Shown piece by piece: positions 3,384-58,983 of a stretch of 64,000 nt of DNA. The notes under the pieces are model-generated. The model searched no databases. It was not told the DNA's origin and was given only the letters and a program-made list of their open reading frames with translations. This DNA is from Eubacteriales bacterium (GTDB lineage: Bacteria; Bacillota; Clostridia; Oscillospirales; CAG-272), in assembly GCA_045643285.1 (NCBI GenBank), contig JAZUKN010000102.1:109996-173995 (forward strand), read 5' to 3'. A program made the translations under genes and the position numbers. The stretch's first letter is position 1, and each line of letters opens with the position of its first letter.

Positions 3384-4418
3384 TCAGTTTGTTTTATCTT
3401 TTTCAACGGCTCTGATGTGTACGAGATGCGCTATCCCGGGGATAGTCAGTCCCTGATTGACGGAGAGCGGATTCATAAGCGCACCGGTTGCGAGAAAGAG
3501 AATGTTTTTCGCTTCTCCTCTGCCGATCTTTCCGAGAATATCCGCCGCCATAACAGAAGCAGAACAACCGCATCCCGACCCGCCTGCATGAACGTCTTCG
3601 CCTTTTTCGGGGTATATCATAAGTCCGCAGTCTCCGTGGACACGCGAAATATCATATTCTTTGACTTTTAAGAGATCGCAGAGTATATCACTGCCTTCGC
3701 TTCCGAGATCTCCCGTGAGGATCATATCGAATTCACCCGGTGAATGACCGGCGGAGAAAAATCTCTCAAGCGTGTCAGCCGCCGACGGTGCCATAGCCGC
3801 ACCCATATTCGACGAATCGCTTATCCCACGGTCGATGATCCTCCCGGGCATCACGCCGACGATTTCGGGAACGTAGTCCGAATGAACCCGTTCAACATCT
3901 TCAGCGAGCGAAGAATACACGAACGCGCCGGACGCAGTGACCGTCCACTGAGAAGTCGGAGAACGCTGACCGCCGTATTCAAGCGGATAGCGGAATTGCC
4001 TCTCAGCCGTGCAGTAGTGTGACGACGTGACGCTCACGCACCTGTCTGCGACGCTTCCGGAATATACAGCCGCCATGATCATCCCTTCCGCACAGGTCGA
4101 GCACGCGCCGTACAGACCGAAGAAGGGTATGCCGAAATCTCCGATCCCGAACGCCGACGGAATGCACTGATTAACGAGATCTCCGGCGAAAACGCAGTCG
4201 ATTTCATTCGCACCGAGCCTTGCTTTGTCAAGCGCAAGACGGACGGCGATCTTCTGCATCTCAGCTTCGGATTTTTCAAATGTGTCCTTGCCGAATTTGT
4301 CATCCCCACATAAATCGAATAAATTTCCTATTGGACCGCGCTTTTCTTTTTCGCCGCCTACAGCCGCAGACGAAATTATAAACACCCGTTTTGACGGACG
4401 AAGAATTTTATTTTTCAT
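3384..4418 (-). CDS. spoVAD: stage V sporulation protein AD (thiolase-like)
   Basis: 344-aa ORF. The N-terminal region (SSAAVGGEKEKRGPIGNLFD...) and overall length match SpoVAD, and it is adjacent to spoVAE. Confidence 0.85.
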   Translation of the reverse strand: MKNKILRPSKRVFIISSAAVGGEKEKRGPIGNLFDLCGDDKFGKDTFEKSEAEMQKIAVRLALDKARLGANEIDCVFAGDLVNQCIPSAFGIGDFGIPFFGLYGACSTCAEGMIMAAVYSGSVADRCVSVTSSHYCTAERQFRYPLEYGGQRSPTSQWTVTASGAFVYSSLAEDVERVHSDYVPEIVGVMPGRIIDRGISDSSNMGAAMAPSAADTLERFFSAGHSPGEFDMILTGDLGSEGSDILCDLLKVKEYDISRVHGDCGLMIYPEKGEDVHAGGSGCGCSASVMAADILGKIGRGEAKNILFLATGALMNPLSVNQGLTIPGIAHLVHIRAVEKDKTN

Positions 4419-4581
4419 TCTATTGCCTTTTCCACTTTGTTTTTTTGTATTATTTCTGCAAGCGCGGGAAAATATACATCATTTTGTGATTTATCAGTCG
4501 CGGACCATTTATTAACTCGGTTATGTCCTTTTGACGTGGAAATGATATAATCGTAAATCAAGTCAAAGGAGCAGAACAAAA

Positions 4582-41418: not shown

Positions 41419-42681
41419 ATGGAAAAAATAATCAAACCGCGCGGCACGATGGACGTAATGGCACCTGACGTGTTCGCATGGAACTATATTGAAAAGAAAG
41501 TCCGCTCGGTCGCCGAACGTTTCGGCTTTACCGAGATCAAGACTCCTATGTTCGAGGAAATCGGACTTTTCAAACGCGGAGTAGGCGAAACAACCGACGT
41601 CGTCCAGAAAGAAATGTACTCGTTCACCGATAAGGACGGCACTGTCTACGCGCTCAGACCGGAGGGAACTGCCTCCGTTGCCCGTGCGATAATCGAGAAC
41701 GGCAAAGCGACAGATACACTTCCGCTAAAGTATTTCTACGTTATCAACTGCTTCCGCTATGAGAAGCCCGAAGCAGGACGGAGCCGCGAATTTGTGCAGT
41801 TCGGAACGGAAATGTTCGGCGCACCCTCTGCCGGTGCAGATTTTACGATAATCTCACTTGCAGACACCGTAATAAAAGAACTCGGACTCAAAAACATCCG
41901 TCTCCATATCAACTCTATCGGCTGTCCCGAATGCAGACCGAAGTACAGACAGATTCTTCGAGATTATCTCTTTGCGAACAAGTCCGAGCTTTGTGACACC
42001 TGTATCGACAGAATGGACGCAAATCCGCTCCGAGTGCTTGACTGCAAGAACGATTCCTGCAAAAAGATAGCGGAGAACGCACCGAAGACGATCGACCACC
42101 TCTGCCCGGAATGTCAGTCTCACATGAACGAGCTGAAAGCATATCTCGACGCATGCGGTATTGATTACGTCATCGACTCGCATATAGTCCGCGGACTTGA
42201 CTACTACACAAGAACGGTATTCGAGTTCATCGCGGAAGGTATCGGCGCACAGTCGACAGTATGCGGCGGCGGCAGATACGACGGACTCATGGAAGAACTC
42301 GGCGGCCCTAAAATGGCGGGCATCGGCTTCGGAATGGGAATCACCCGTCTCATCCTTGCAATGAAAGAAAGCGGTATTGAGATTCCCGCACTTGCAGTTC
42401 CCGAGCTTTATATCGCGTCAATGGGACAGGCGGCTGCCGTAAAGGGAGCGGAGATCACAACAGCTCTTCGTAAAGCCGGAATCAACGCCGAATGCGATAT
42501 TATGCAGAGAAGCCTCAAGGCTCAGATGAAATACGCCGACAAGATCGGTGCAAGATTTGTTTTAATGCTCGGCGACAGCGAGATCGAAAGCGGCAAAGGT
42601 ACGGTCAAAGAAATGGCGACGAGCGAGCAGACCGAAGTCGAACTTGACAAAATCGCAGAGTTTATCGCGTCAAAGCAGTAA
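41419..42681 (+). CDS. hisS: histidine--tRNA ligase
   Basis: Class II motifs (RPEGTASVAR, FRYEKPEAGRSREF, GGGRYDGL) and a C-terminal anticodon-binding domain. Confidence 0.95.
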   Translation: MEKIIKPRGTMDVMAPDVFAWNYIEKKVRSVAERFGFTEIKTPMFEEIGLFKRGVGETTDVVQKEMYSFTDKDGTVYALRPEGTASVARAIIENGKATDTLPLKYFYVINCFRYEKPEAGRSREFVQFGTEMFGAPSAGADFTIISLADTVIKELGLKNIRLHINSIGCPECRPKYRQILRDYLFANKSELCDTCIDRMDANPLRVLDCKNDSCKKIAENAPKTIDHLCPECQSHMNELKAYLDACGIDYVIDSHIVRGLDYYTRTVFEFIAEGIGAQSTVCGGGRYDGLMEELGGPKMAGIGFGMGITRLILAMKESGIEIPALAVPELYIASMGQAAAVKGAEITTALRKAGINAECDIMQRSLKAQMKYADKIGARFVLMLGDSEIESGKGTVKEMATSEQTEVELDKIAEFIASKQ

Positions 42682-42715
42682 ATTACAATAAAAATAATTT
42701 CCGGAGGAATTGAAA

Positions 42716-44050
42716 ATGGAAAGAACATATATCGGCGAAATCAGACAGAACCTTGACAAGCCCGTTCTTCTCCGCGGATTCGTTGAAAACTTCCGCGACG
42801 GCAAGTCCATGGCGTTCATCGTTCTCAAAGACATTACAGGAAAAGTACAGATCACGATCGAAAAAGAAAAGCACCCCGAAGTCCTCGATTCTCTCGTAGG
42901 ACTCACACCTGACTCCGTTATCTCCGTAACCGGCGTTGCTTATGAAAGCGAATACGTCAAAATGGGCGGCGTTGAAGTCATTCCCGAAAGCATAACAGTT
43001 GAGTCTGTTGCAACGGGACTTCCGATCATCAGAGAATATATCCCGGCAACGAAGAAATATCCCGCAGTTGAGAAGTCCGCTATCGACTCCCGCCTTGACT
43101 ACCGCTGGATCGACCTCAGAACGGATGCAAACCAGCTCATGTTCAAGGTACAGACCGCATTCGTCGGCGCAATGAGAAACTTTCTTCTCGAGAAAAACTT
43201 CATTGAGATCCACACACCGAAGCTCATCGGCGCGGCTTCCGAATCGGGTGCCGATGTATTCGAGGTAAAGTATTTCGACAGACAGGCATATCTTGCACAG
43301 TCGCCTCAGTTCTATAAGCAGATGGCTATGGCGGCAGGTTTTGAGAGAATATTCGAGGTAGGACCTGTGTTCCGTGCGGAAAAGTCCTATACATCAAAGC
43401 ACACGACTGAATTTACCGGTTTCGACCTTGAATTCAGCTATATCGAATCGTTCCGTGACGTTATGAAAATGGAGGAAGACCTCCTCACATACGCTCTCGG
43501 CGTTGTAAAAGAAAAATACGGCGACGCGATCAAGGAAACGTTCGGACTTGAAGTCATCGTTCCCGAAAAGCCGTTCCCGACAGTAAAGCTCGCAGACCTC
43601 TATGACGCACTCGAAAAAGAATACGGCTACGTTGTTCCGGAATCCGAAAAGGGCGACCTTACAACAGAAGCAGAACAGCTCTCCTACAAGTGGGTAAAAG
43701 AACACTACAACCACGAATTCCTTTTCATCACAGACTACAGTGCGGAAAAGCGTGCGTTCTATCACATGAGAGATGAAAATGGCGTTCCGATGGGTTACGA
43801 CCTCATCTGGCGTGGTGTTGAGATCACGACAGGCGCACAGCGTGAGCATAGATACGACGTTCTCGCAGCTCAGGCAAAGGAAAAAGGACTTGACGAAGAC
43901 GTTAAGTTCTATCTTGAATTCTTCAAGTACGGATGCCCGCCGCACGGTGGATTCGGTCTCGGCGTTGACCGTCTTACAATGCTCCTCTGCGGACTTCATA
44001 TCAATGAAGCAATGTTCCTCTTCAGAAGCCCGAAGAGACTTACTCCGTAA
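42716..44050 (+). CDS. aspS: aspartate--tRNA ligase, archaeal/eukaryal type (type 2, about 444 aa)
   Basis: OB-fold N-terminus, class IIb motifs FRAEKSYTSKHTTEF and GGFGLGVDRL, with no bacterial GAD insertion. The ATG at 42716 (SD GGAGG at 8 nt) is preferred over the TTG at 42710. Confidence 0.85.
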   Translation: MERTYIGEIRQNLDKPVLLRGFVENFRDGKSMAFIVLKDITGKVQITIEKEKHPEVLDSLVGLTPDSVISVTGVAYESEYVKMGGVEVIPESITVESVATGLPIIREYIPATKKYPAVEKSAIDSRLDYRWIDLRTDANQLMFKVQTAFVGAMRNFLLEKNFIEIHTPKLIGAASESGADVFEVKYFDRQAYLAQSPQFYKQMAMAAGFERIFEVGPVFRAEKSYTSKHTTEFTGFDLEFSYIESFRDVMKMEEDLLTYALGVVKEKYGDAIKETFGLEVIVPEKPFPTVKLADLYDALEKEYGYVVPESEKGDLTTEAEQLSYKWVKEHYNHEFLFITDYSAEKRAFYHMRDENGVPMGYDLIWRGVEITTGAQREHRYDVLAAQAKEKGLDEDVKFYLEFFKYGCPPHGGFGLGVDRLTMLLCGLHINEAMFLFRSPKRLTP

Positions 44051-49898: not shown

Positions 49899-50468
49899 AT
49901 GGAAGTAATCCGCAATATTTTTGTGTCGCTTATTGATCATTTTGCCGCGATGACCTTGCCGGAAAAGCTGACAGGAATACTCGCAATGATCTTTTGCATT
50001 TCCGCATTTCTCTTAAAAAACAGAAAAGCTATCCTCGTTGTTCAGCTTATTGGAATGGGGTTGTGGACAGTTCACTTTTTCCTGCTTCACCAGTATGCAG
50101 GAGCTGCGATGAACGGCATCGCCGCGATCCGCGGTCTTGTCTACGTTCAGCGCGGCAGATTTAAGTGGACGGAATCGAAGATCATTCCGGAGGTGTTCAT
50201 TGTTCTGTTTATCGGAGCAGGCCTGTTCACGTTCTTCTACGGCGGTGACAACAACTTTTGGCTGCCTGTTATAGCGATGACTATCACATCGATCGGTCTT
50301 TTCTTCAAGGACGAACAGCGCGTGCGTCTTATCAGCCTGTTTTCCTCTCCGCCGTGGATCGTTTATAACGCTCTTGCAGGCTCCATACCGGCTGTGATCA
50401 CGGAATCGCTTGTAATGCTTGCGACCTTCCTCGGACTTGTGATTTACAGAAAGAAGAAAAATTCGTAA
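49899..50468 (+). CDS. YgjV family inner membrane protein
   Basis: 189 aa with about 5 TM helices. The pattern resembles YgjV. The family call is from memory. Confidence 0.6.
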   Translation: MEVIRNIFVSLIDHFAAMTLPEKLTGILAMIFCISAFLLKNRKAILVVQLIGMGLWTVHFFLLHQYAGAAMNGIAAIRGLVYVQRGRFKWTESKIIPEVFIVLFIGAGLFTFFYGGDNNFWLPVIAMTITSIGLFFKDEQRVRLISLFSSPPWIVYNALAGSIPAVITESLVMLATFLGLVIYRKKKNS

Positions 50469-50545
50469 ACACTAACAGAATCTCTCCTGTTTTCGCTAAA
50501 CGGGAGAGTTTTTTGTAATAATTCGAATTATTTTTGCGAAAGGTA

Positions 50546-50574
50546 TTGATTTTTTGATTATGATATGCTATAAT
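50546..50574 (+). promoter_or_regulatory. sigma-A-type promoter of tRNA-Trp
   Basis: TTGATT, 17-nt spacer ending in TGc, TATAAT. It lies 12 nt before the tRNA 5' end. Confidence 0.65.
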
Positions 50575-50586
50575 ACTCAGCGTTGT

Positions 50587-50659
50587 AGGGGTATAGCTCA
50601 GTTGGTAGAGCAGTGGTCTCCAAAACCACGTGTCCTGAGTTCGAGTCTTAGTGCCCCTG
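50587..50659 (+). tRNA. tRNA-Trp (anticodon CCA)
   Basis: Hand-folded. Acceptor AGGGGTA/TGCCCCT, anticodon arm GTGGT-CTCCAAA-ACCAC, T arm CTGAG-TTCGAGT-CTTAG, discriminator G. Confidence 0.9.
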
Positions 50660-50662
50660 TGA

Positions 50663-50690
50663 AAAAAGACACCGTACGGTGTCTTTTTTA
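50663..50690 (+). terminator. intrinsic terminator after tRNA-Trp
   Basis: Stem AGACACC/GGTGTCT with a GTAC loop, flanked by A6 and T6. Confidence 0.85.
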
Positions 50691-50692
50691 GT

Positions 50693-50793
50693 GATGTGTT
50701 CCACTTTGCGGAACGATAAGTACACTTCGTACGTGAAGCGTACTTGCTCCGCAAGTACAGTGAAGTAGCCTGCGGGCGAGTGTGGAACACATC
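50693..50793 (+). other. unclassified 101-nt structured element
   Basis: 12-bp perfect closing inverted repeat GATGTGTTCCAC/GTGGAACACATC. It encloses an imperfect 17-bp hairpin (TTGCGGA..AAGTAC..CTTC / GAAG..GTACTT..TCCGCAA). The strand is not determined. Confidence 0.4.
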
Positions 50794-50794
50794 T

Positions 50795-50869
50795 CTTCAC
50801 TTTGCAAAGCAAAACTTCACTTCGGCGAAGCCGATACTTCACTTTCGTCGTAAGACGAAAACTTCACTT
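50795..50869 (+). repeat. four CTTCACTT direct repeats, three of them followed by short hairpins
   Basis: Exact 8-mers at 50795, 50815, 50837 and 50862. The hairpins are TTGC-AAA-GCAA, CGGC-GAA-GCCG and TCGTC-GTAA-GACGA. Inverted copies (GTGAAG) lie at 50733 and 50760. Confidence 0.85.
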
Positions 50870-50914
50870 GATCATATCATACCGCGATATATCATTTTCC
50901 TACTATCATAAAAC

Positions 50915-50951
50915 ATAAAAATAAGGCAAACTTTTCGTCTGCCTTATTTTG
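50915..50951 (-). terminator. intrinsic terminator after the acyl-CoA-ligase-like gene (bidirectional hairpin)
   Basis: Stem ATAAGGCA/TGCCTTAT flanked by A and T runs. Confidence 0.7.
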
Positions 50952-50954
50952 TTT

Positions 50955-52589
50955 TTATCTTGTTGTTTGTGCTTCGACGAGCGACTGACCGCAGTAGATC
51001 TTGCGGAGCTTCGGTTTTTCGATCTTTCCCGTTGGATTGCGCGGCACATCTGCAAAGATGATCTTGCGAGGTCTCTTGTATCTCGGCATTTCGAGACAGA
51101 ATTCGTTGACTTCTTCTTCGGTCATTGTCATGTCGGGCTTTACTTCGATGATAGCCGCGGCGATCTCACCGAGTCTGTCGTCGGGAAGACCGATGACAGC
51201 CACGTCCTTGATTTTGTCGTTGCGTCTGAGGAAGTCTTCGATCTGAACGGGGTAGAGGTTTTCGCCTCCTGTGATGATTACGTCTTTTTTACGGTCTACG
51301 AGGTAGATGAAGCCGTCCTTGTCACGCTTTGCCATATCTCCTGTGTAGAGCCAACCGCCTTTGAGTATCTCATTCGTTGCTGCTTCGTTTTTGTAGTAGC
51401 ATTTCATCACGCCGGGACCTTTGACGCAAAGCTCGCCGACTTCTTCGGGTTCAGTGACTTCTTTGTCGCCGTTCATTATCTTTGCTTCCCAAAGGTATCC
51501 TGGAACGCCGATAGCACCGACTTTTTCGATGTTTTCAACCCCGAGGTGGACGCATCCCGGACCTATTGACTCGGAAAGTCCGTAGTTCGTGTCATACTGG
51601 TGATTCGGGAAGACTTTCTTCCATCTCTTTATAAGTGACGGCGGAACGGGCTGTGCGCCGATGTGCATAAGTCTCCACTGAGAGAGACGGTATTTCGATA
51701 AGTCTATGTCACCTCTGTCGATCGCGTCGAGAATATCCTGCGCCCACGGCACGAGAAGCCATACTATTGTTGCTCTTTCTTCGGATACTGCCCGGAGGAT
51801 CCATTCAGGGGACACTCCCTTTAAGATAACGGCGCGGCTGCCAGAGAGAAGACTGCCGAACCAGTGCATTTTTGCGCCGGTATGATAGAGCGGCGGAATG
51901 CAGAGGAATACGTCGTCGCGCGTCTGACCGTGGTGATTCTGCTCTGTACGGCAGGAATTGATAAGCGAGCGGTGAGCGTGAAGAATGGCTTTCGGGAAGC
52001 CCGTAGTACCGGACGAGAAGTAAATCGCGCCGTCGTCGTCTTCGGTAAGTTCAACCGCCGGTGCGATCGTTGAGCAGTATTTTACCATTCTGTCGTAGCT
52101 GTCGGCAAATTCGGGAACGTCCTTTCCGACAAAGAAATGATGGCGGATGAACGGAATATCAAGATAAATCGAAGAAACACGCTCGGTAAATTCCGGTCCG
52201 AAGATGAGTACGGAAACGTCTGCAAGCTCAGCGCAGTATTTTATCTCATCTGCCGAATAACGGTAGTTCATCGGTACTGCGAGCGCACCTGTTTTCAGTA
52301 CGCCGAAGTATATCGGAAGCCATTCGATGCAGTTCATCAGAAGAATGGCAACCTTGTCGCCTTTCTTTACACCGCGCGTGAGAAGCAGATTCGCAAACTG
52401 ATTTGCGCGTAAGTCAAACTCTCTCCAGGTCAGCTCGCGTCTGTATTTTGCGCCGGGAGTGGATTCAATAAGCGAAAACTCACGCCACGACAGATTTGCG
52501 TCGGGCTGATTTGCGGGGTTGATCTCAACGAGCGCAACGTCATCCGGAAACAGCTTTGCGTTTCTTTCAAGAAGTTCTGTGATTACCAT
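50955..52589 (-). CDS. ANL-superfamily adenylate-forming enzyme (acyl-CoA ligase-like)
   Basis: AMP-binding motifs YFSSGTTGFPKAI, YGLSE, TGDMAKRDKDGFIYLVDRKKD and PRNPTGKI. The start was set to the ATG at 52589 (SD AAAGGA), downstream of the T-box terminator. Confidence 0.85.
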   Translation of the reverse strand: MVITELLERNAKLFPDDVALVEINPANQPDANLSWREFSLIESTPGAKYRRELTWREFDLRANQFANLLLTRGVKKGDKVAILLMNCIEWLPIYFGVLKTGALAVPMNYRYSADEIKYCAELADVSVLIFGPEFTERVSSIYLDIPFIRHHFFVGKDVPEFADSYDRMVKYCSTIAPAVELTEDDDGAIYFSSGTTGFPKAILHAHRSLINSCRTEQNHHGQTRDDVFLCIPPLYHTGAKMHWFGSLLSGSRAVILKGVSPEWILRAVSEERATIVWLLVPWAQDILDAIDRGDIDLSKYRLSQWRLMHIGAQPVPPSLIKRWKKVFPNHQYDTNYGLSESIGPGCVHLGVENIEKVGAIGVPGYLWEAKIMNGDKEVTEPEEVGELCVKGPGVMKCYYKNEAATNEILKGGWLYTGDMAKRDKDGFIYLVDRKKDVIITGGENLYPVQIEDFLRRNDKIKDVAVIGLPDDRLGEIAAAIIEVKPDMTMTEEEVNEFCLEMPRYKRPRKIIFADVPRNPTGKIEKPKLRKIYCGQSLVEAQTTR

Positions 52590-52620
52590 AGTGTAGTCCT
52601 TTCTCGTCTGCCGAGGAAAC

Positions 52621-52895
52621 AAAAAAGTCCTTCGGCTGAAATATGCCGGAGGACGGATTTCTCCGCGGTACCACCTCGGTTGCCTTACCGTTTCCGATAA
52701 GACCGCTCAAAGCACACTGATATGTGCCGGACACTGTAACGGTTGTCATCCGACGCAGCCTACTCGTTTCCTTTCGGTGCGCTGCTACGGAAATGTATTC
52801 GCACGAGCCTATCCCATGACTTGCACCGACCGTCACTTCTCTGTGGGGAATCGTCTCGCCTACTCTTTTTCCATCGCCGCATTTACTATTTATAT
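52621..52895 (-). promoter_or_regulatory. T-box riboswitch leader, specifier UAC (tyrosine)
   Basis: Minus strand features are the AG bulge AGAGAAG, distal loop GGUGCAAG and specifier loop GAA-UAC-A (codon = plus 52795-52797). The T-box sequence AACCGAGGUGGUACCGCGG is at plus 52663-52681. The terminator is at 52627-52636/52645-52654 followed by U6. Confidence 0.85.
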
Positions 52896-52900
52896 GTTGA

Positions 52901-52929
52901 ATTTTATCACTCAAATGTGATTTTGTCAA
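52901..52929 (-). promoter_or_regulatory. sigma-A-type promoter of the T-box leader
   Basis: Minus strand reads TTGACA, 17-nt spacer ending in TGa, TAAAAT. Confidence 0.65.
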
Positions 52930-52976
52930 GTATTTTTTGCGAAAAATATGCGCGTTTTGATATAAATAACTAATAA

Positions 52977-53675
52977 TTATAAGAATTTTATTCCGCCGTA
53001 GTCCGTGAGTTGTCCGTCTGAGAGAGAGGCTATTTCGTATCCGTGCTTGTCGGCGAATAAACGTATATCATCTCCGGCAGTGGCAGAGTCGATATTTCCG
53101 AAGAAATACAGCACTCCGTCATAAAATCCGCCGCATCCGCCGATGAATCCGACGTCGTAACCCGATAGCATGATTCCGTCGTTCCGGACGTACAGATTTT
53201 CGATTCCGTTTTTCGTCAGTGCTTCCGAAATACCTCTATCGGATGTTATAACGGCATTTCCGCACACGATACACGAGCATCCGGCGTAACCCTGTTTTAC
53301 GTCAATGATAATATATCCGAGCCGCTCGGCTTCTATGAGCAGGGAAGCGTCGGCAGAGTTCTTTCGGCAGATGATAAATCCGTTTCCTACAGCCGCGTTC
53401 AGTCCAACGTCGTGCGGATATGCCGAGCCTCGTTCAGTATCGGACTCAAAGATATTATATCCGCTTTTTTCGAGGAAAAAACAAAACAACGGATTATTCC
53501 TTGCATATTTTTGCGAGATAATTGCACTTTTCCCGATGACCGAGAGTATCATATCGGGGTGACAGCATACGGGACGGGCAAGAGTATCGTCGGGCGGCAG
53601 AAAAAACACGTCCGCGAGAGACGCGAGATTCTTTTTGATCTCTTCCGATACTTGAGACGATACGACAGCTCTCAT
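52977..53675 (-). CDS. hypothetical protein (conserved clostridial DUF; no function assignable)
   Basis: 232-aa soluble protein with SD GGAG. I see no motif I can name with confidence. Confidence 0.5.
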   Translation of the reverse strand: MRAVVSSQVSEEIKKNLASLADVFFLPPDDTLARPVCCHPDMILSVIGKSAIISQKYARNNPLFCFFLEKSGYNIFESDTERGSAYPHDVGLNAAVGNGFIICRKNSADASLLIEAERLGYIIIDVKQGYAGCSCIVCGNAVITSDRGISEALTKNGIENLYVRNDGIMLSGYDVGFIGGCGGFYDGVLYFFGNIDSATAGDDIRLFADKHGYEIASLSDGQLTDYGGIKFL

Positions 53676-54038: not shown

Positions 54039-55220
54039 TTATTTTAACTTTTTCACGAAATTTTCGATCCTGTCGAGTGCTTTTGCGATGTGTTCAACAG
54101 AATAAGCGTAAGAAATACGCGCGAATCCCTCGCCGCATTCGCCGAACGCGGTACCCGGTACTATTGCCACGCCGTTTTCGTAGAGAAGTCTTTCGCAGAA
54201 TTTTTCCGAATCCATACCGAATCCGGATATGTTCGGGAAGACATAGAACGCTCCCTCGGGATCGAAGCAGTCAAGCCCTATTGATCTCAGCCCGCCTACG
54301 ATGTACCTGCGCCGTCTGTTGTATTCGGAGCGCATCATTTCAACGTCTGCGTCTCCGTTACGCATGGCTTCGACTGCCGCAAACTGTGATGCTGTCGGCG
54401 CACACATTATTGCGTATTGGTGGATCTTGAGCATCTGTTTTGTGATCTCTTTCGGAGCGAGAGTGTAGCCGAGTCGCCAACCGGTCATAGCGTAGGTTTT
54501 CGAGAATCCGCTCGCTATGATCGTTCTTTCACGCATACCGTCAAGTGAGGCGATAGTGACGTGATCTCTGCCGTATGTCAGCTCGCAGTAAATCTCATCG
54601 GAGAGAACCATTATATCCGTACCGCGAAGAACGGCGGCAATCTCTTCGAGATCATCTTTTGTCATGATCGCTCCTGTCGGATTGTTAGGGAACGGAAGCA
54701 CGAGCAGTTTTGTCTTCGGAGTTATTGCGGCGCGCAGTTCTTCGGCAGTCAGTTTGAAGCGGTTTTCTTCCTTTGTATTTATATATACGGGTACGCCGCC
54801 TGCAAGAGAGACGATAGGACCGTAGCAAACGAATGCAGGTTGTGGAATTATTACTTCATCCCCGGGTGAAACAAGCGCGCGGACTGTGAGATCTATTGCC
54901 TCGCTTCCGCCGACTGTAACGATAATTTCGTCCTCCGGCGAATAACTCACTCCGAAACGGCGGTTCATATATGAAGATATTTCATGTCTCAGCTCGGGAG
55001 TACCACTGTTTGAGGTGTAGTACGTTTTGCCTTTTTCGAGTGATTCTATTGCGGCGTCGCGTATGTGCCACGGTGTCACGAAGTCAGGTTGACCGACAGT
55101 GAGAGCCACAACGTCGTCGAGTGAGCCTATCATATCGAAGAACTTGCGTATTCCCGACGGCTTCATTTCCCGAACGGTATCGGGAATAATTTTTGAGTAG
55201 TCGAGCATCAGAATTCGCAT
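54039..55220 (-). CDS. PLP-dependent aminotransferase class I (AlaT/AspC-like)
   Basis: SGFSKTYAMTGWRLGY PLP-lysine motif. It is paired with an upstream Lrp/AsnC regulator, as in B. subtilis alaR-alaT. Confidence 0.8.
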   Translation of the reverse strand: MRILMLDYSKIIPDTVREMKPSGIRKFFDMIGSLDDVVALTVGQPDFVTPWHIRDAAIESLEKGKTYYTSNSGTPELRHEISSYMNRRFGVSYSPEDEIIVTVGGSEAIDLTVRALVSPGDEVIIPQPAFVCYGPIVSLAGGVPVYINTKEENRFKLTAEELRAAITPKTKLLVLPFPNNPTGAIMTKDDLEEIAAVLRGTDIMVLSDEIYCELTYGRDHVTIASLDGMRERTIIASGFSKTYAMTGWRLGYTLAPKEITKQMLKIHQYAIMCAPTASQFAAVEAMRNGDADVEMMRSEYNRRRRYIVGGLRSIGLDCFDPEGAFYVFPNISGFGMDSEKFCERLLYENGVAIVPGTAFGECGEGFARISYAYSVEHIAKALDRIENFVKKLK

Positions 55221-55708: not shown

Positions 55709-57310
55709 TTATCTTTGGATTTTTTCGATTATTCTGTCTATTGATAATCCGTATTTTTCGGCGATGTCGCGTGCGTAGCTCTTGCCGTCCGGTGCTTCTC
55801 TGAGTATTCTGAACGAGCGCGAGCCTTTTTCAATCGCCGCAACGAGATTGTCGATTTTTACGCCGCCTTTCGGGACGCAGGTTTCGTTTATCGAGTCGAC
55901 ACGCGCCGCAAGATCGTGCAGGTGAGTGGAGAATATGCCGCGGCATTTCACAAGCGAGAAGCCCTCGAGCACCTCGGACGCGATATAAGCGCCCTCGAAT
56001 GATCCTGTGGACGACAGTGATTCGTCGAGCAGAACGAGCGAGTTTTCAGTTACATTTTCAAATATCTCCGAGAGACGGGAGCATTCCTCACCGAGTCTGC
56101 CTTTGTCGATAGTGTCTTCGCTGCCTGTCGGGAAGTGGGTAAAGATCGCGTCGGCAGGGCTGATCTCGCACGACTCAGCACAAACGGGAAGACCAAGCTC
56201 GGCCATAACGAACGCAAGTCCGACGGCGCAGGTGATGACGGATTTTCCGCCTCTGTTTGGTCCCGTGAGGACGTAGATCATACCGTTTTCGTCGAACGAA
56301 AAATCGTTCGGAACGATCTCCGTGTCGATTTTCAGCGCGACTACGGGATTCCACAGACCTTTTGCAGTGAACGCTTTCTCACTCTGTTTTTTCAGTGTCG
56401 GATTGACGAGCGGACAGCCTTTTTCTCGCAGAGTGCGGAGCATTTCCGTCGCTTTTGAGACAAATTCTATCTCCGGGATCATGCGGATCAAGAAGTCCGT
56501 GTTTTCGAGAACGTAGTGCTGTACTACTTTTTTCCACGAATGGATATTTTGCTTGAAAACGTCGTTTATCGCACCGTCAAAGGCGTTCGAGAGAGCTATT
56601 TCGGTGTTTTCCGACTGACCTTTACCGAAAGGAACGAGAGGAGCTATGCACGTCATTTCGTCGTTTCTGAAGTCGAGACGGAGTATCTTGTCGAGAAGCT
56701 CACCGGATTTGAACGGCTCGTTGTTGATCGAAAGAACACCGGCTTTTTCAGCGCGGAGAGTTCTGTCGAGATTAACGCCGATCGTCACGCTTTTGATCTC
56801 TCTGACGCGCGAAGTCAGCTCTTCGAGACGCTCGTTGATGTTTTTGTAATACTCACTCTCGGTCAGTGTTGTGATCCGTTCTTCAAAAGCACGGAACGCA
56901 CGGCTATTGAGATTGTCCCTGAGCGGCTCAAGTCCGTTTTTCAGATCGGCGAGGAGGGAAGTATAAAGCTCGACTTCGGTGATGCTGTACAAATATCCGT
57001 CTGCCGACATCGCGGAATCGCTTCCGAGCTTTCTCAATTCAGTTATATCTCCGAGAACGGGGATCATTTTCGTGAGAATATCGGAAAGTGACGGATTTTC
57101 AAGCATATCCGCGAACATTTCCTGCCTGTAGAGAAGCACGTCTTCGTCGGACGAGAAGAACTGCGACGCTTCCGATTCGTTCATGTCGATAAGACGTGAC
57201 AGCTCAAGCTGTTCGGCTGATGCTTCGGAAAGATGCGCGGACTGTTTTCTTTCAGCCTCCGACGGATTCGGGTAAAGAAGACTTATATCCGGAAATTCGG
57301 TTTTTTCCAT
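55709..57310 (-). CDS. MutS-related ATPase (MutS domain V only)
   Basis: Motifs GPNRGGKSV, LLDESLSSTG and STHLHDL. There is no mismatch-binding domain and no Smr domain. The ATG at 57310 (SD AAGGAA) is preferred over the GTG at 57337. Confidence 0.75.
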   Translation of the reverse strand: MEKTEFPDISLLYPNPSEAERKQSAHLSEASAEQLELSRLIDMNESEASQFFSSDEDVLLYRQEMFADMLENPSLSDILTKMIPVLGDITELRKLGSDSAMSADGYLYSITEVELYTSLLADLKNGLEPLRDNLNSRAFRAFEERITTLTESEYYKNINERLEELTSRVREIKSVTIGVNLDRTLRAEKAGVLSINNEPFKSGELLDKILRLDFRNDEMTCIAPLVPFGKGQSENTEIALSNAFDGAINDVFKQNIHSWKKVVQHYVLENTDFLIRMIPEIEFVSKATEMLRTLREKGCPLVNPTLKKQSEKAFTAKGLWNPVVALKIDTEIVPNDFSFDENGMIYVLTGPNRGGKSVITCAVGLAFVMAELGLPVCAESCEISPADAIFTHFPTGSEDTIDKGRLGEECSRLSEIFENVTENSLVLLDESLSSTGSFEGAYIASEVLEGFSLVKCRGIFSTHLHDLAARVDSINETCVPKGGVKIDNLVAAIEKGSRSFRILREAPDGKSYARDIAEKYGLSIDRIIEKIQR

Positions 57311-57327
57311 ATTGTGTTCCTTATAAC

Positions 57328-58983
57328 TTATTTGCACATGAACAGACGGTAAACCGTCAGTATAGACTGTTCTATCGTGTATGAGCCTTTCGGAGAGAAT
57401 TTGTTGTCGCCGACTCCACCCATAACGTTAGATTTCTCACTTGAAACAAGTGACGAGATGAATTTCACTCCGTCAGCCGCCCAGGATGAAACGGATGAAC
57501 CGTCGGCAAAGTTGATGCCGTCGCCGCCTGCTTTGATGCCGAGGAACTGTGCCGCACGGGTGAGCATCGTTGCCGCCTGTTCTCTTGTCAGTGTGCCGGC
57601 AGGAGAGAATTTTCCCTCTCCCGTGCCGTTGACGATACCGAGAGCTGCGGCGGCGAGAACGGACGGATTGTTTGTATCGGTGAACATACCGCTGTCAACG
57701 GTTTTTCCGGCTTTTGCGAGCAGATCGTTTACGTCCTTTGCTCCGGTGTATTTAACGAGCATATTCGTGACGAGCGTGCAGAACTGCTCACGTGTGATAG
57801 TATTGCGATAGTTCTTCTGGAGAGAAGCCGGAACGAGGGAATATTTAAGTGCTTTTGCGATCTCAGGCTGAGCCCAAGCTGACGGAGTATTTTCGGCGTC
57901 AGAATGAGGACGGTCAATTATCTCGTGTGTTGCCGAGATCTTTTCGTCGGTCGTATCGAAATACGAGGCAGTCATAGGTATCGTGGAGAACTGACCGTAT
58001 TCATAAATGTTGCCGGAGTCCCATGTCGGATCGAGTGTGATCCATCTGCCGTCGCAGTATGCGAAAACTATCGCGTGGTTAGCTTCGTGTCTCAGTCCGT
58101 CGAAAGTGTCGGCTGTGCCTATTGTAAGTGAATATGTCGTGCCGATCGTTGACGGGATTCCCTCAGAGCGGAGAAGAGCATTGAGAAGACGGCAGTAACC
58201 GTCACAGATAGAACGTCTTTCTCTGATAACATCGAGCGGATAATAGTAGATCGTCGCCGATCTGCCGTAAATATAATCGTTGTCGTAATATATATTTTCG
58301 GAAACCCAGTTGGAGAGCTTGCGTATTCTTTCGTAGGTGTTTGTTTCGTTTCCGATTATCGTGTCACCGAGGGCTTTGATCGTCTTGATTGTAGATCTAA
58401 GCTCGTTTTCGTACTCTTCTTTTGAAGTGTGTACGGCGAGAAGACGGTCATATGAGATAAAATACTGAGCTTCAAACGCAGACATCGTGGTTACGTCGTC
58501 CGGAATAAGACATTCGGCTGGATTGAGCCATTCGGAGAGTAGTTTTTTGTTGTTGTCGTATACAGAGGAGAGCTTGAAATAGTATCCCGACTGACCTTTG
58601 GCGATGTCAACCATATTGTAGATGTAGCTGATGAAGTTGCCGCCGGAGAAGTTCGTTTTGATGAAAACCTGTACAGGAACGAGAGAACCGTCGGCTACCT
58701 TCAGCGTTTCGGAGAACTGTTCGTTCTTTCCTTTGGTTATGATCTTGCTTGACGCGTCGAGAGATGCCGATGTCGTTGCGCGGATCCAGATCTGTTCAAG
58801 TCCTTCAATCGGAATACAACCCGAAACAGTAACGTCAGAGCCGTTTATCGTAAATTTCAGTGCTGTTTTTTCGTCATGTGACGTGACGAACGTTGTCGGT
58901 TCATTCGCCGCCGAGACGACAAGCGGAAGCGTGCAAAGAATCATTATCAGCGCGAGAATCAGAGAGAAGAGTCTTTTTTTCAT
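57328..58983 (-). CDS. secreted transglutaminase-like protein with C-terminal SLH domains
   Basis: Signal peptide, then the Cys-His-Asp core (RRSICDGYCRLL...HAIVFAY...LDPTW), then two SLH-like repeats (FTDTNNPS...TREQAATML and FADGSSVSSWA...). Confidence 0.75.
   Translation of the reverse strand: MKKRLFSLILALIMILCTLPLVVSAANEPTTFVTSHDEKTALKFTINGSDVTVSGCIPIEGLEQIWIRATTSASLDASSKIITKGKNEQFSETLKVADGSLVPVQVFIKTNFSGGNFISYIYNMVDIAKGQSGYYFKLSSVYDNNKKLLSEWLNPAECLIPDDVTTMSAFEAQYFISYDRLLAVHTSKEEYENELRSTIKTIKALGDTIIGNETNTYERIRKLSNWVSENIYYDNDYIYGRSATIYYYPLDVIRERRSICDGYCRLLNALLRSEGIPSTIGTTYSLTIGTADTFDGLRHEANHAIVFAYCDGRWITLDPTWDSGNIYEYGQFSTIPMTASYFDTTDEKISATHEIIDRPHSDAENTPSAWAQPEIAKALKYSLVPASLQKNYRNTITREQFCTLVTNMLVKYTGAKDVNDLLAKAGKTVDSGMFTDTNNPSVLAAAALGIVNGTGEGKFSPAGTLTREQAATMLTRAAQFLGIKAGGDGINFADGSSVSSWAADGVKFISSLVSSEKSNVMGGVGDNKFSPKGSYTIEQSILTVYRLFMCK

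Follow-up and report, generated by a model that had tools for sequence, protein, structure and literature searches.

A predicted tRNA-Tyr-specific T-box leader precedes a candidate arylacetate-CoA ligase gene in Clostridia

A 64,000-nucleotide stretch of an Eubacteriales genome (NCBI assembly GCA_045643285.1, contig JAZUKN010000102.1, positions 109,996 to 173,995; hereafter the window) contains a T-box riboswitch leader on its minus strand and, directly downstream, a gene for a 544-residue adenylate-forming enzyme. By its sequence, the leader is an ordinary, transcription-attenuating T-box specific for tRNA-Tyr. The enzyme is probably a tRNA-Tyr-sensed arylacetate-CoA ligase acting on 4-hydroxyphenylacetate, whose product would feed reductive carboxylation to 4-hydroxyphenylpyruvate and then tyrosine; we favor this role on the strength of the leader and of the genes clustered with the enzyme in related species.

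T-boxes switch genes on when their cognate tRNA is uncharged, and a tRNA synthetase, a classical biosynthesis gene or a transporter is the usual target. The gene regulated here is none of these, being an acyl-CoA ligase of the ANL family that in relatives forms an operon with iorAB, the genes for indolepyruvate:ferredoxin oxidoreductase (IOR). Neither an ANL ligase nor iorAB is among the targets given in the main text and supplements of two T-box regulon surveys (PMC2494555, PMC3766115), and a literature search returned no report of a T-box before an acyl-CoA ligase or iorAB, although an earlier mention is possible.

Results

The leader is a full-length T-box with a tyrosine specifier

A search of the whole window with Rfam identified a single T-box at gathering level, at 52886-52646 on the minus strand (RF00230, 109.7 bits against a gathering score of 93 bits, E = 2.4e-23). 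The alignment spans positions 1-219 of the 219-position model and is not truncated. An original prediction, made from the sequence letters, had held that every T-box element is readable on this strand and had proposed the RF00230 search; the full-model match, with UAC at the specifier column, bears it out. The minimum-free-energy fold of the leader also recovers Stem I and the terminator. The elements of the leader are as follows.

52901-52929, minus strand: sigma-70-type promoter, TTGACA-17-TAAAAT with an upstream TG, 11/12 matches
52646-52886, minus strand: T-box leader (RF00230) with Stem I, Stem III and antiterminator, from Rfam and the minimum-free-energy fold
52866-52861, minus strand: 5' side of Stem I, AGAGUA, GA/S-turn motif
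52842-52836, minus strand: AG bulge AGAGAAG, aligned to consensus AGAGA
52827-52820, minus strand: distal loop GGUGCAAG, aligned to consensus GGUGaaA
52800-52798, 52797-52795 and 52794, minus strand: 3' side of the specifier loop, GAA, UAC and A respectively, from the covariance alignment
52663-52681, minus strand: T-box sequence AACCGAGGUGGUACCGCGG, with the UGGU bulge at 52673-52670
52654-52645 and 52636-52627, minus strand: arms of the leader terminator, GUCCUCCGGC and GCCGAAGGAC, with U6 at 52626-52621

The promoter, some 15 nt upstream of where the Rfam match begins, is the top promoter-like site within 50400-53300; with 11 of 12 positions matching, its earlier description as near-consensus is apt. 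The AG bulge and distal loop, which make up the tRNA-elbow platform, are both aligned in the top class of posterior probability ('*').

In solved T-box Stem I structures the specifier is the codon immediately after the S-turn GAA and is followed by a purine, an arrangement also seen in Bacillus subtilis glyQS (GAA-GGC-A). The covariance alignment places GAA-UAC-A at this position in the window, and GAA-UACA directly precedes UUCC, which pairs with GGAA as the stem-closing helix. UAC is a tyrosine codon and is the specifier of the B. subtilis tyrS T-box.

At the other end of the leader, GGUGGUACCGCG is present as the conserved T-box sequence and the antiterminator carries a UGGN bulge. The U of UGGU fits a discriminator A, and the UGGU bulge would pair with the ACCA end of uncharged tRNA. 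Since the 5' arm of the terminator shares nucleotides with the 3' strand of the antiterminator, only one of the two structures can form at a time. Two details of the original prediction need amendment: the U6 run is present, but the stem described as 10 bp consists of nine pairs and one C/A mismatch around an 8-nt loop; and the U-run stops about 20 nt short of the AGGA Shine-Dalgarno sequence and 31 nt short of the ATG (52589), rather than 32 nt before the Shine-Dalgarno sequence. Overall, the leader shares with RF00230 leaders such as those of B. subtilis tyrS and glyQS the GA/S-turn, the codon followed by a purine, the AG bulge, the distal loop, and a UGGN antiterminator bulge with a competing terminator, and it has the same UAC as tyrS.

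The regulated gene encodes an ANL enzyme of an unnamed subfamily

The transcription unit downstream of the leader consists of a gene and its terminator.

50955-52589, minus strand: gene for a 544-aa ANL (class I adenylate-forming) enzyme, with Shine-Dalgarno sequence AGGA at 52600-52597 and ATG at 52589
50918-50950, minus strand: terminator closing the ligase unit, with a 14-bp stem, a 5-nt loop and a T-rich tail, starting 5 nt past the stop codon

Because this terminator follows straight after the stop codon, the ligase gene is the only gene of the unit. The protein contains an AMP-binding domain (PF00501, E = 6.2e-73) and an AMP-binding_C domain (PF13193, E = 5e-11), together with the ANL motifs SSGTTGFPK (192), YGLSE (336), YTGD (415), DRKKDVI (432) and PRNPTGK (516); most of the core-motif positions are invariant in 82 orthologs. 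The Pfam domains and the 14-bp terminator agree with the earlier assertion that an ANL enzyme is the sole regulated gene before a terminator.

The databases label the subfamily only as acyl-CoA ligase, long-chain fatty acid-CoA ligase or class I adenylate-forming enzyme. The top NCBIfam match of the protein is NF004837 (PRK06187, long-chain-fatty-acid-CoA ligase), which it matches with 401.5 bits against a cut-off of 476, and none of the 25 families listed for it, including FadD, MenE, FadD3/5 and malonyl-CoA synthase, reached its cut-off. The nearest solved structures are FadD13 (PDB 3r44, E = 6.5e-71), FadD5, feruloyl-CoA synthetase and 4-coumarate-CoA ligases, the 4-coumarate-CoA and feruloyl-CoA ligases having E = 1e-50 to 1e-58. 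Together these results indicate an acyl- or aryl-CoA ligase of an unnamed ANL subfamily. The two-domain architecture and core motifs are common to this enzyme and to the FadD13/PRK06187 fatty-acyl-CoA ligases, but the window ligase falls below the family cut-off and is under predicted tRNA-Tyr control, and the genomic context of the window-type ligases is aromatic amino acid rather than lipid metabolism.

We also considered whether the enzyme is a PaaK-type ligase and rejected this identity. BLASTP against the PaaK-like protein of one related locus (L019, described below) aligned only a 24-residue hinge motif, and TIGR02155 (PaaK) is absent from the 25 best NCBIfam families for the ligase. PaaK-type ligases located beside iorAB in Bacteroides, Geobacter and archaea (TIGR02155) share with the window ligase a proposed role in activating arylacetates for a biosynthetic IOR; however, they belong to another ANL subfamily and are about 435 aa long as compared to 544 aa, and both types often occur in one cluster.

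The leader is associated with the ligase across related species

Related loci were collected by scanning one genome per GTDB species with the ligase, giving at least 599 confirmed relatives. The neighborhood counts rest on the best 80 of these (L001-L080), whose ligases are 69-85% identical to the window protein and which are all from Clostridia metagenome-assembled genomes (MAGs) or scaffolds, those of Oscillospiraceae and Acutalibacteraceae among them, and mostly from gut, faecal or rumen samples. A further locus (L081, 87% identity) was added through a protein look-up, and with the window these make 82 loci from different species, with an overall identity range of 62-87%. Leaders were sought in all 82 with an nhmmer profile made from motif-found leaders, a strong T-box being one with E < 1e-30.

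A strong T-box is present on the ligase strand in 38 of the 82 loci, upstream of either the ligase or a symporter-ligase pair, and when 11 nhmmer positives were re-tested with Rfam, eight scored above the gathering score. The aligned specifier column reads UAC in 36 of the 38 leaders and UUC (Phe, likewise an aromatic amino acid) in the other two (L070 5717-5955, which is Rfam-confirmed, and L022 198-479). The tyrosine specifier originally read from the window is thus corroborated both by the covariance alignment and by its recurrence before orthologous ligases, while the T-box itself, whose conservation upstream of orthologs had been proposed as a check, occurs in fewer than half of the loci.

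Among the 38 T-box loci, six contain only the ligase (the window is one of them), the ligase is joined by a symporter in 12, and iorA or iorAB is present as well in 20; the ligase is the constant member of the T-box regulon. The T-box-ligase unit is found in unrelated neighborhoods in the window, L001 and L081, which argues that the leader belongs to the ligase. Its presence is patchy over the ligase tree, ruling out the possibility that the T-box is confined to one ligase clade. Nor does it appear that leaders were missed by the motif or HMM searches: Rfam found a T-box in none of 11 T-box-negative loci, and the upstream gaps there, at about 100-250 nt, are too short. We conclude that the T-box is truly missing from these loci.

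Upstream of the T-box-less ligases we looked for aryl-acid-responsive regulators and found none; the open reading frames (ORFs) in this position encode 4HBT thioesterases, a weak MIF-like product, or unrelated or unknown proteins. A gene for a PaaI-like 4HBT thioesterase is directly upstream of the ligase in L044 (4418-4822) and L060 (5445-5852). The MIF/tautomerase-like match is at L045 5567-5911 and is weak (24 bits). One locus, L047, has a second T-box unrelated to the ligase (4280-4513, minus strand), which is divergent from the ligase operon and precedes alaS.

In many relatives, the ligase gene is clustered with iorAB

A same-strand cluster containing both the ligase gene and iorA is present in 43 of the 82 loci, with a median gap from ligase to iorA of about 31 nt (mostly 16-40 nt). 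Further genes often found in these clusters code for a Na+/solute symporter, a class I/II aminotransferase or a PaaK-like ligase. L019, for example, runs from the T-box through the Na+/solute symporter and the ligase to IorA, IorB and the PaaK-like ligase, and both oxidoreductase subunits pass their NCBIfam equivalog cut-offs (IorA 736 bits against 651 for TIGR03336, IorB 286 against 230). A class I/II aminotransferase gene closes the cluster in five loci, after PaaK in L021, L017, L070 and L053, and in L051 as the last member of a gapless series of Tyr T-box, ligase, IorA, IorB and aminotransferase. Aryl/indolepyruvate:ferredoxin oxidoreductase genes, suggested earlier as something to look for, are found in the clusters of these 43 orthologs and not within the 64-kb window. 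The association with iorA, the L019 equivalog scores, the L051 gene order and the PaaI-like thioesterase genes beside the ligase in L044 and L060 support the originally proposed role as an arylacetate-CoA ligase that would feed IOR.

A proposed route from 4-hydroxyphenylacetate to tyrosine

Since a T-box induces its genes when the cognate tRNA is uncharged, the product of the regulated gene should raise tyrosine supply. An AMP-forming ligase encoded directly before IorAB would, on the simplest view, supply the acyl-CoA for reductive carboxylation by IOR, and with a Tyr specifier we take this acyl-CoA to be 4-hydroxyphenylacetyl-CoA. The scheme we propose is that when tyrosine is short, the GUA anticodon of uncharged tRNA-Tyr would pair with UAC and its free ACCA end with the UGGU bulge; this pairing would stabilize the antiterminator and allow RNA polymerase to read into the single downstream gene. 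The symporter, where present, would import an aryl acid, and the ligase would activate arylacetate, chiefly 4-hydroxyphenylacetate from the gut or rumen surroundings, to its CoA thioester. IorAB would reductively carboxylate the thioester to 4-hydroxyphenylpyruvate, which the aminotransferase would turn into tyrosine.

The regulatory steps of this scheme are established at the level of sequence only, and the enzymatic steps are drawn from the conserved gene clusters of related species and are correspondingly tentative. We infer 4-hydroxyphenylacetate as the substrate only from the Tyr specifier and the IOR neighborhood, and likewise infer the direction of IOR; the ligase could also take phenylacetate or indoleacetate. 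In the genome from which the window derives, iorAB would lie outside the 64-kb window.

Anabolic use of this chemistry is in line with published work. The genes for Bacteroides IOR lie together with one for an AMP-forming arylacetate-CoA ligase, and this IOR has been suggested to be anabolic (PMC13285125); phenylalanine synthesis from phenylacetate is described for rumen anaerobes (Allison 1965, as cited in PMC7356843); and the Geobacter genome paper describes iorAB-paaK behind a tryptophan-related leader (PMC2700814). The anabolic IOR route of methanogens and rumen anaerobes follows the same logic, from arylacetate to arylacetyl-CoA, arylpyruvate and transamination, but the candidate route described here is in Clostridia (Oscillospiraceae and Acutalibacteraceae MAGs), employs another activating enzyme, and is preceded by a tRNA-sensing riboswitch.

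Several observations weigh against this interpretation. The top sequence matches of the ligase are fatty-acyl-CoA ligases (PRK06187, FadD13), and about half of the orthologous loci have no T-box. We searched the whole 64-kb window for iorA, iorB, PaaK and the symporter and found none of them. Many clusters already have a PaaK-like arylacetate-CoA ligase, and the presence of a second ligase can then be explained only by a division of substrates; we assume that PaaK acts on phenylacetate or indoleacetate and the window-type ligase on the 4-hydroxy compound. De novo aromatic synthesis is also not wholly missing, as genes for a shikimate dehydrogenase/shikimate kinase fusion and a type II dehydroquinase are located at 1-1625 of L081, 9 kb upstream of the T-box-ligase unit. 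The salvage route would then add to aromatic biosynthesis, or bypass its tyrosine branch, without replacing it in full. Finally, where residues are conserved in the Tyr group, no substitution is common to the two ligases under Phe T-boxes (L070 and L022), which counts against strict specificity for 4-hydroxyphenylacetate.

This last observation makes a generalist arylacetate-CoA ligase, taking phenylacetate, indoleacetate and 4-hydroxyphenylacetate alike, a serious alternative, even if we think it rather unlikely; the Tyr specifier would then merely mark the aromatic amino acid that is scarce. It is consistent with the location of two orthologs behind UUC leaders, and with the reports that IOR takes all three arylpyruvates and that the AMP-forming ligase associated with Bacteroides IOR, assayed on all three arylacetates, is an arylacetate-CoA ligase (PMC13285125). 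A generalist fits less well with the specificity for Tyr of 36 of the 38 leaders, with a T-box that travels with the ligase and not with iorAB or PaaK, and with the separate PaaK-like ligase of many clusters, which suggests that substrates are divided.

The ligase might instead act on another acid related to tyrosine, with no connection to IOR (p-coumarate, 3-(4-hydroxyphenyl)propionate or 4-hydroxyphenyllactate), or adenylate tyrosine itself for some other product; either seems improbable to us. The 4-coumarate-CoA and feruloyl-CoA ligases among the solved relatives and the solitary position of the window gene, without iorAB, could be read in this way, but none of these substrates would raise tyrosine supply as expected of a T-box-induced gene, and the proximity of iorAB (gaps of about 30 nt) across 43 of the 82 loci indicates that the product is an arylacetyl-CoA. 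Nor does a carrier protein or a condensation partner adjoin the ligase, and the tyrosine-adenylating enzyme that had originally been offered as an alternative gained no support. Least probable of all, and in our view barely tenable, is either a catabolic cluster fermenting aromatic amino acids oxidatively through IOR, a use known from peptide fermenters (PMC13285125), or a plain fatty-acid-CoA ligase placed behind a T-box by chance, as the source annotations (long-chain fatty acid-CoA ligase) and the FadD-type top NCBIfam and PDB matches might suggest: induction under tyrosine shortage does not suit a pathway of tyrosine breakdown, thioester synthesis is the direction favored by AMP-forming ligases (PMC13285125), the ligase falls below every NCBIfam family cut-off, and a Tyr leader kept in 36 species cannot be coincidental.

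We therefore retain the arylacetate-CoA ligase with 4-hydroxyphenylacetate as its chief substrate as the more probable reading. On the broader proposition, that this FadD-like enzyme represents an unrecognized family of 4-hydroxyphenylacetate-CoA ligases that together with the Na+ symporter, IorAB and the aminotransferase constitutes a tRNA-Tyr-sensed tyrosine salvage operon, we find ourselves evenly divided.

Genes surrounding the window locus

Upstream of the leader on the same strand, and outside its control, are genes for a DUF6873 protein (52977-53675) and a class I/II aminotransferase (54039-55220); the latter is PRK07682-like, with 562 bits against a cut-off of 620. A conserved linkage of the ligase to these two genes was considered and rejected, as it is not kept even in the closest relatives. 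Downstream of the ligase are tRNA-Trp (50586-50660, plus strand) and a sugar ATP-binding cassette transporter. Pfam scans of 29 window ORFs (26442-63800) revealed housekeeping genes only.

Between the tRNA-Trp terminator and the ligase terminator is a hairpin-rich stretch (50690-50870) with three copies of a AAAACTTCACTT-like 12-mer (50811, 50833 and 50858), each beside a short palindrome, and a 15-nt inverted repeat (50690-50704 / 50782-50796); this stretch has no Rfam match at gathering level. Elsewhere in the window, hisS adjoins a gene for an aspS/asnS-type class II synthetase (41419-44050), with no T-box at Rfam gathering level, and at 55709-58983 there is a 10-nt overlap between a gene for a MutS domain-V-only ATPase (542 aa) and the 5' end of a gene whose 551-aa product combines a transglutaminase core with an SLH domain.

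Discussion

The riboswitch mechanism described here is standard; what is new is the content of the regulon and the functional assignment for a widespread but unnamed ligase subfamily, with close relatives in 600 or more species-level genomes. A T-box specifier labels the gene downstream of it with an amino acid, and in this instance it gives an unnamed ANL subfamily a tyrosine-linked function. The specifier and the iorAB neighborhood together provide a testable genetic model for the formation of tyrosine from 4-hydroxyphenylacetate in gut and rumen Clostridia.

If the model is correct, these bacteria would reconstitute tyrosine from an end product of their neighbors' fermentation, and the genes for the rumen conversion of arylacetates to amino acids described in the 1960s would be identified for Firmicutes. 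It would also bear on the cross-feeding of aromatic fermentation products and on what becomes of 4-hydroxyphenylacetate, from which p-cresol is formed, and would affect genome-based predictions of amino acid auxotrophy.

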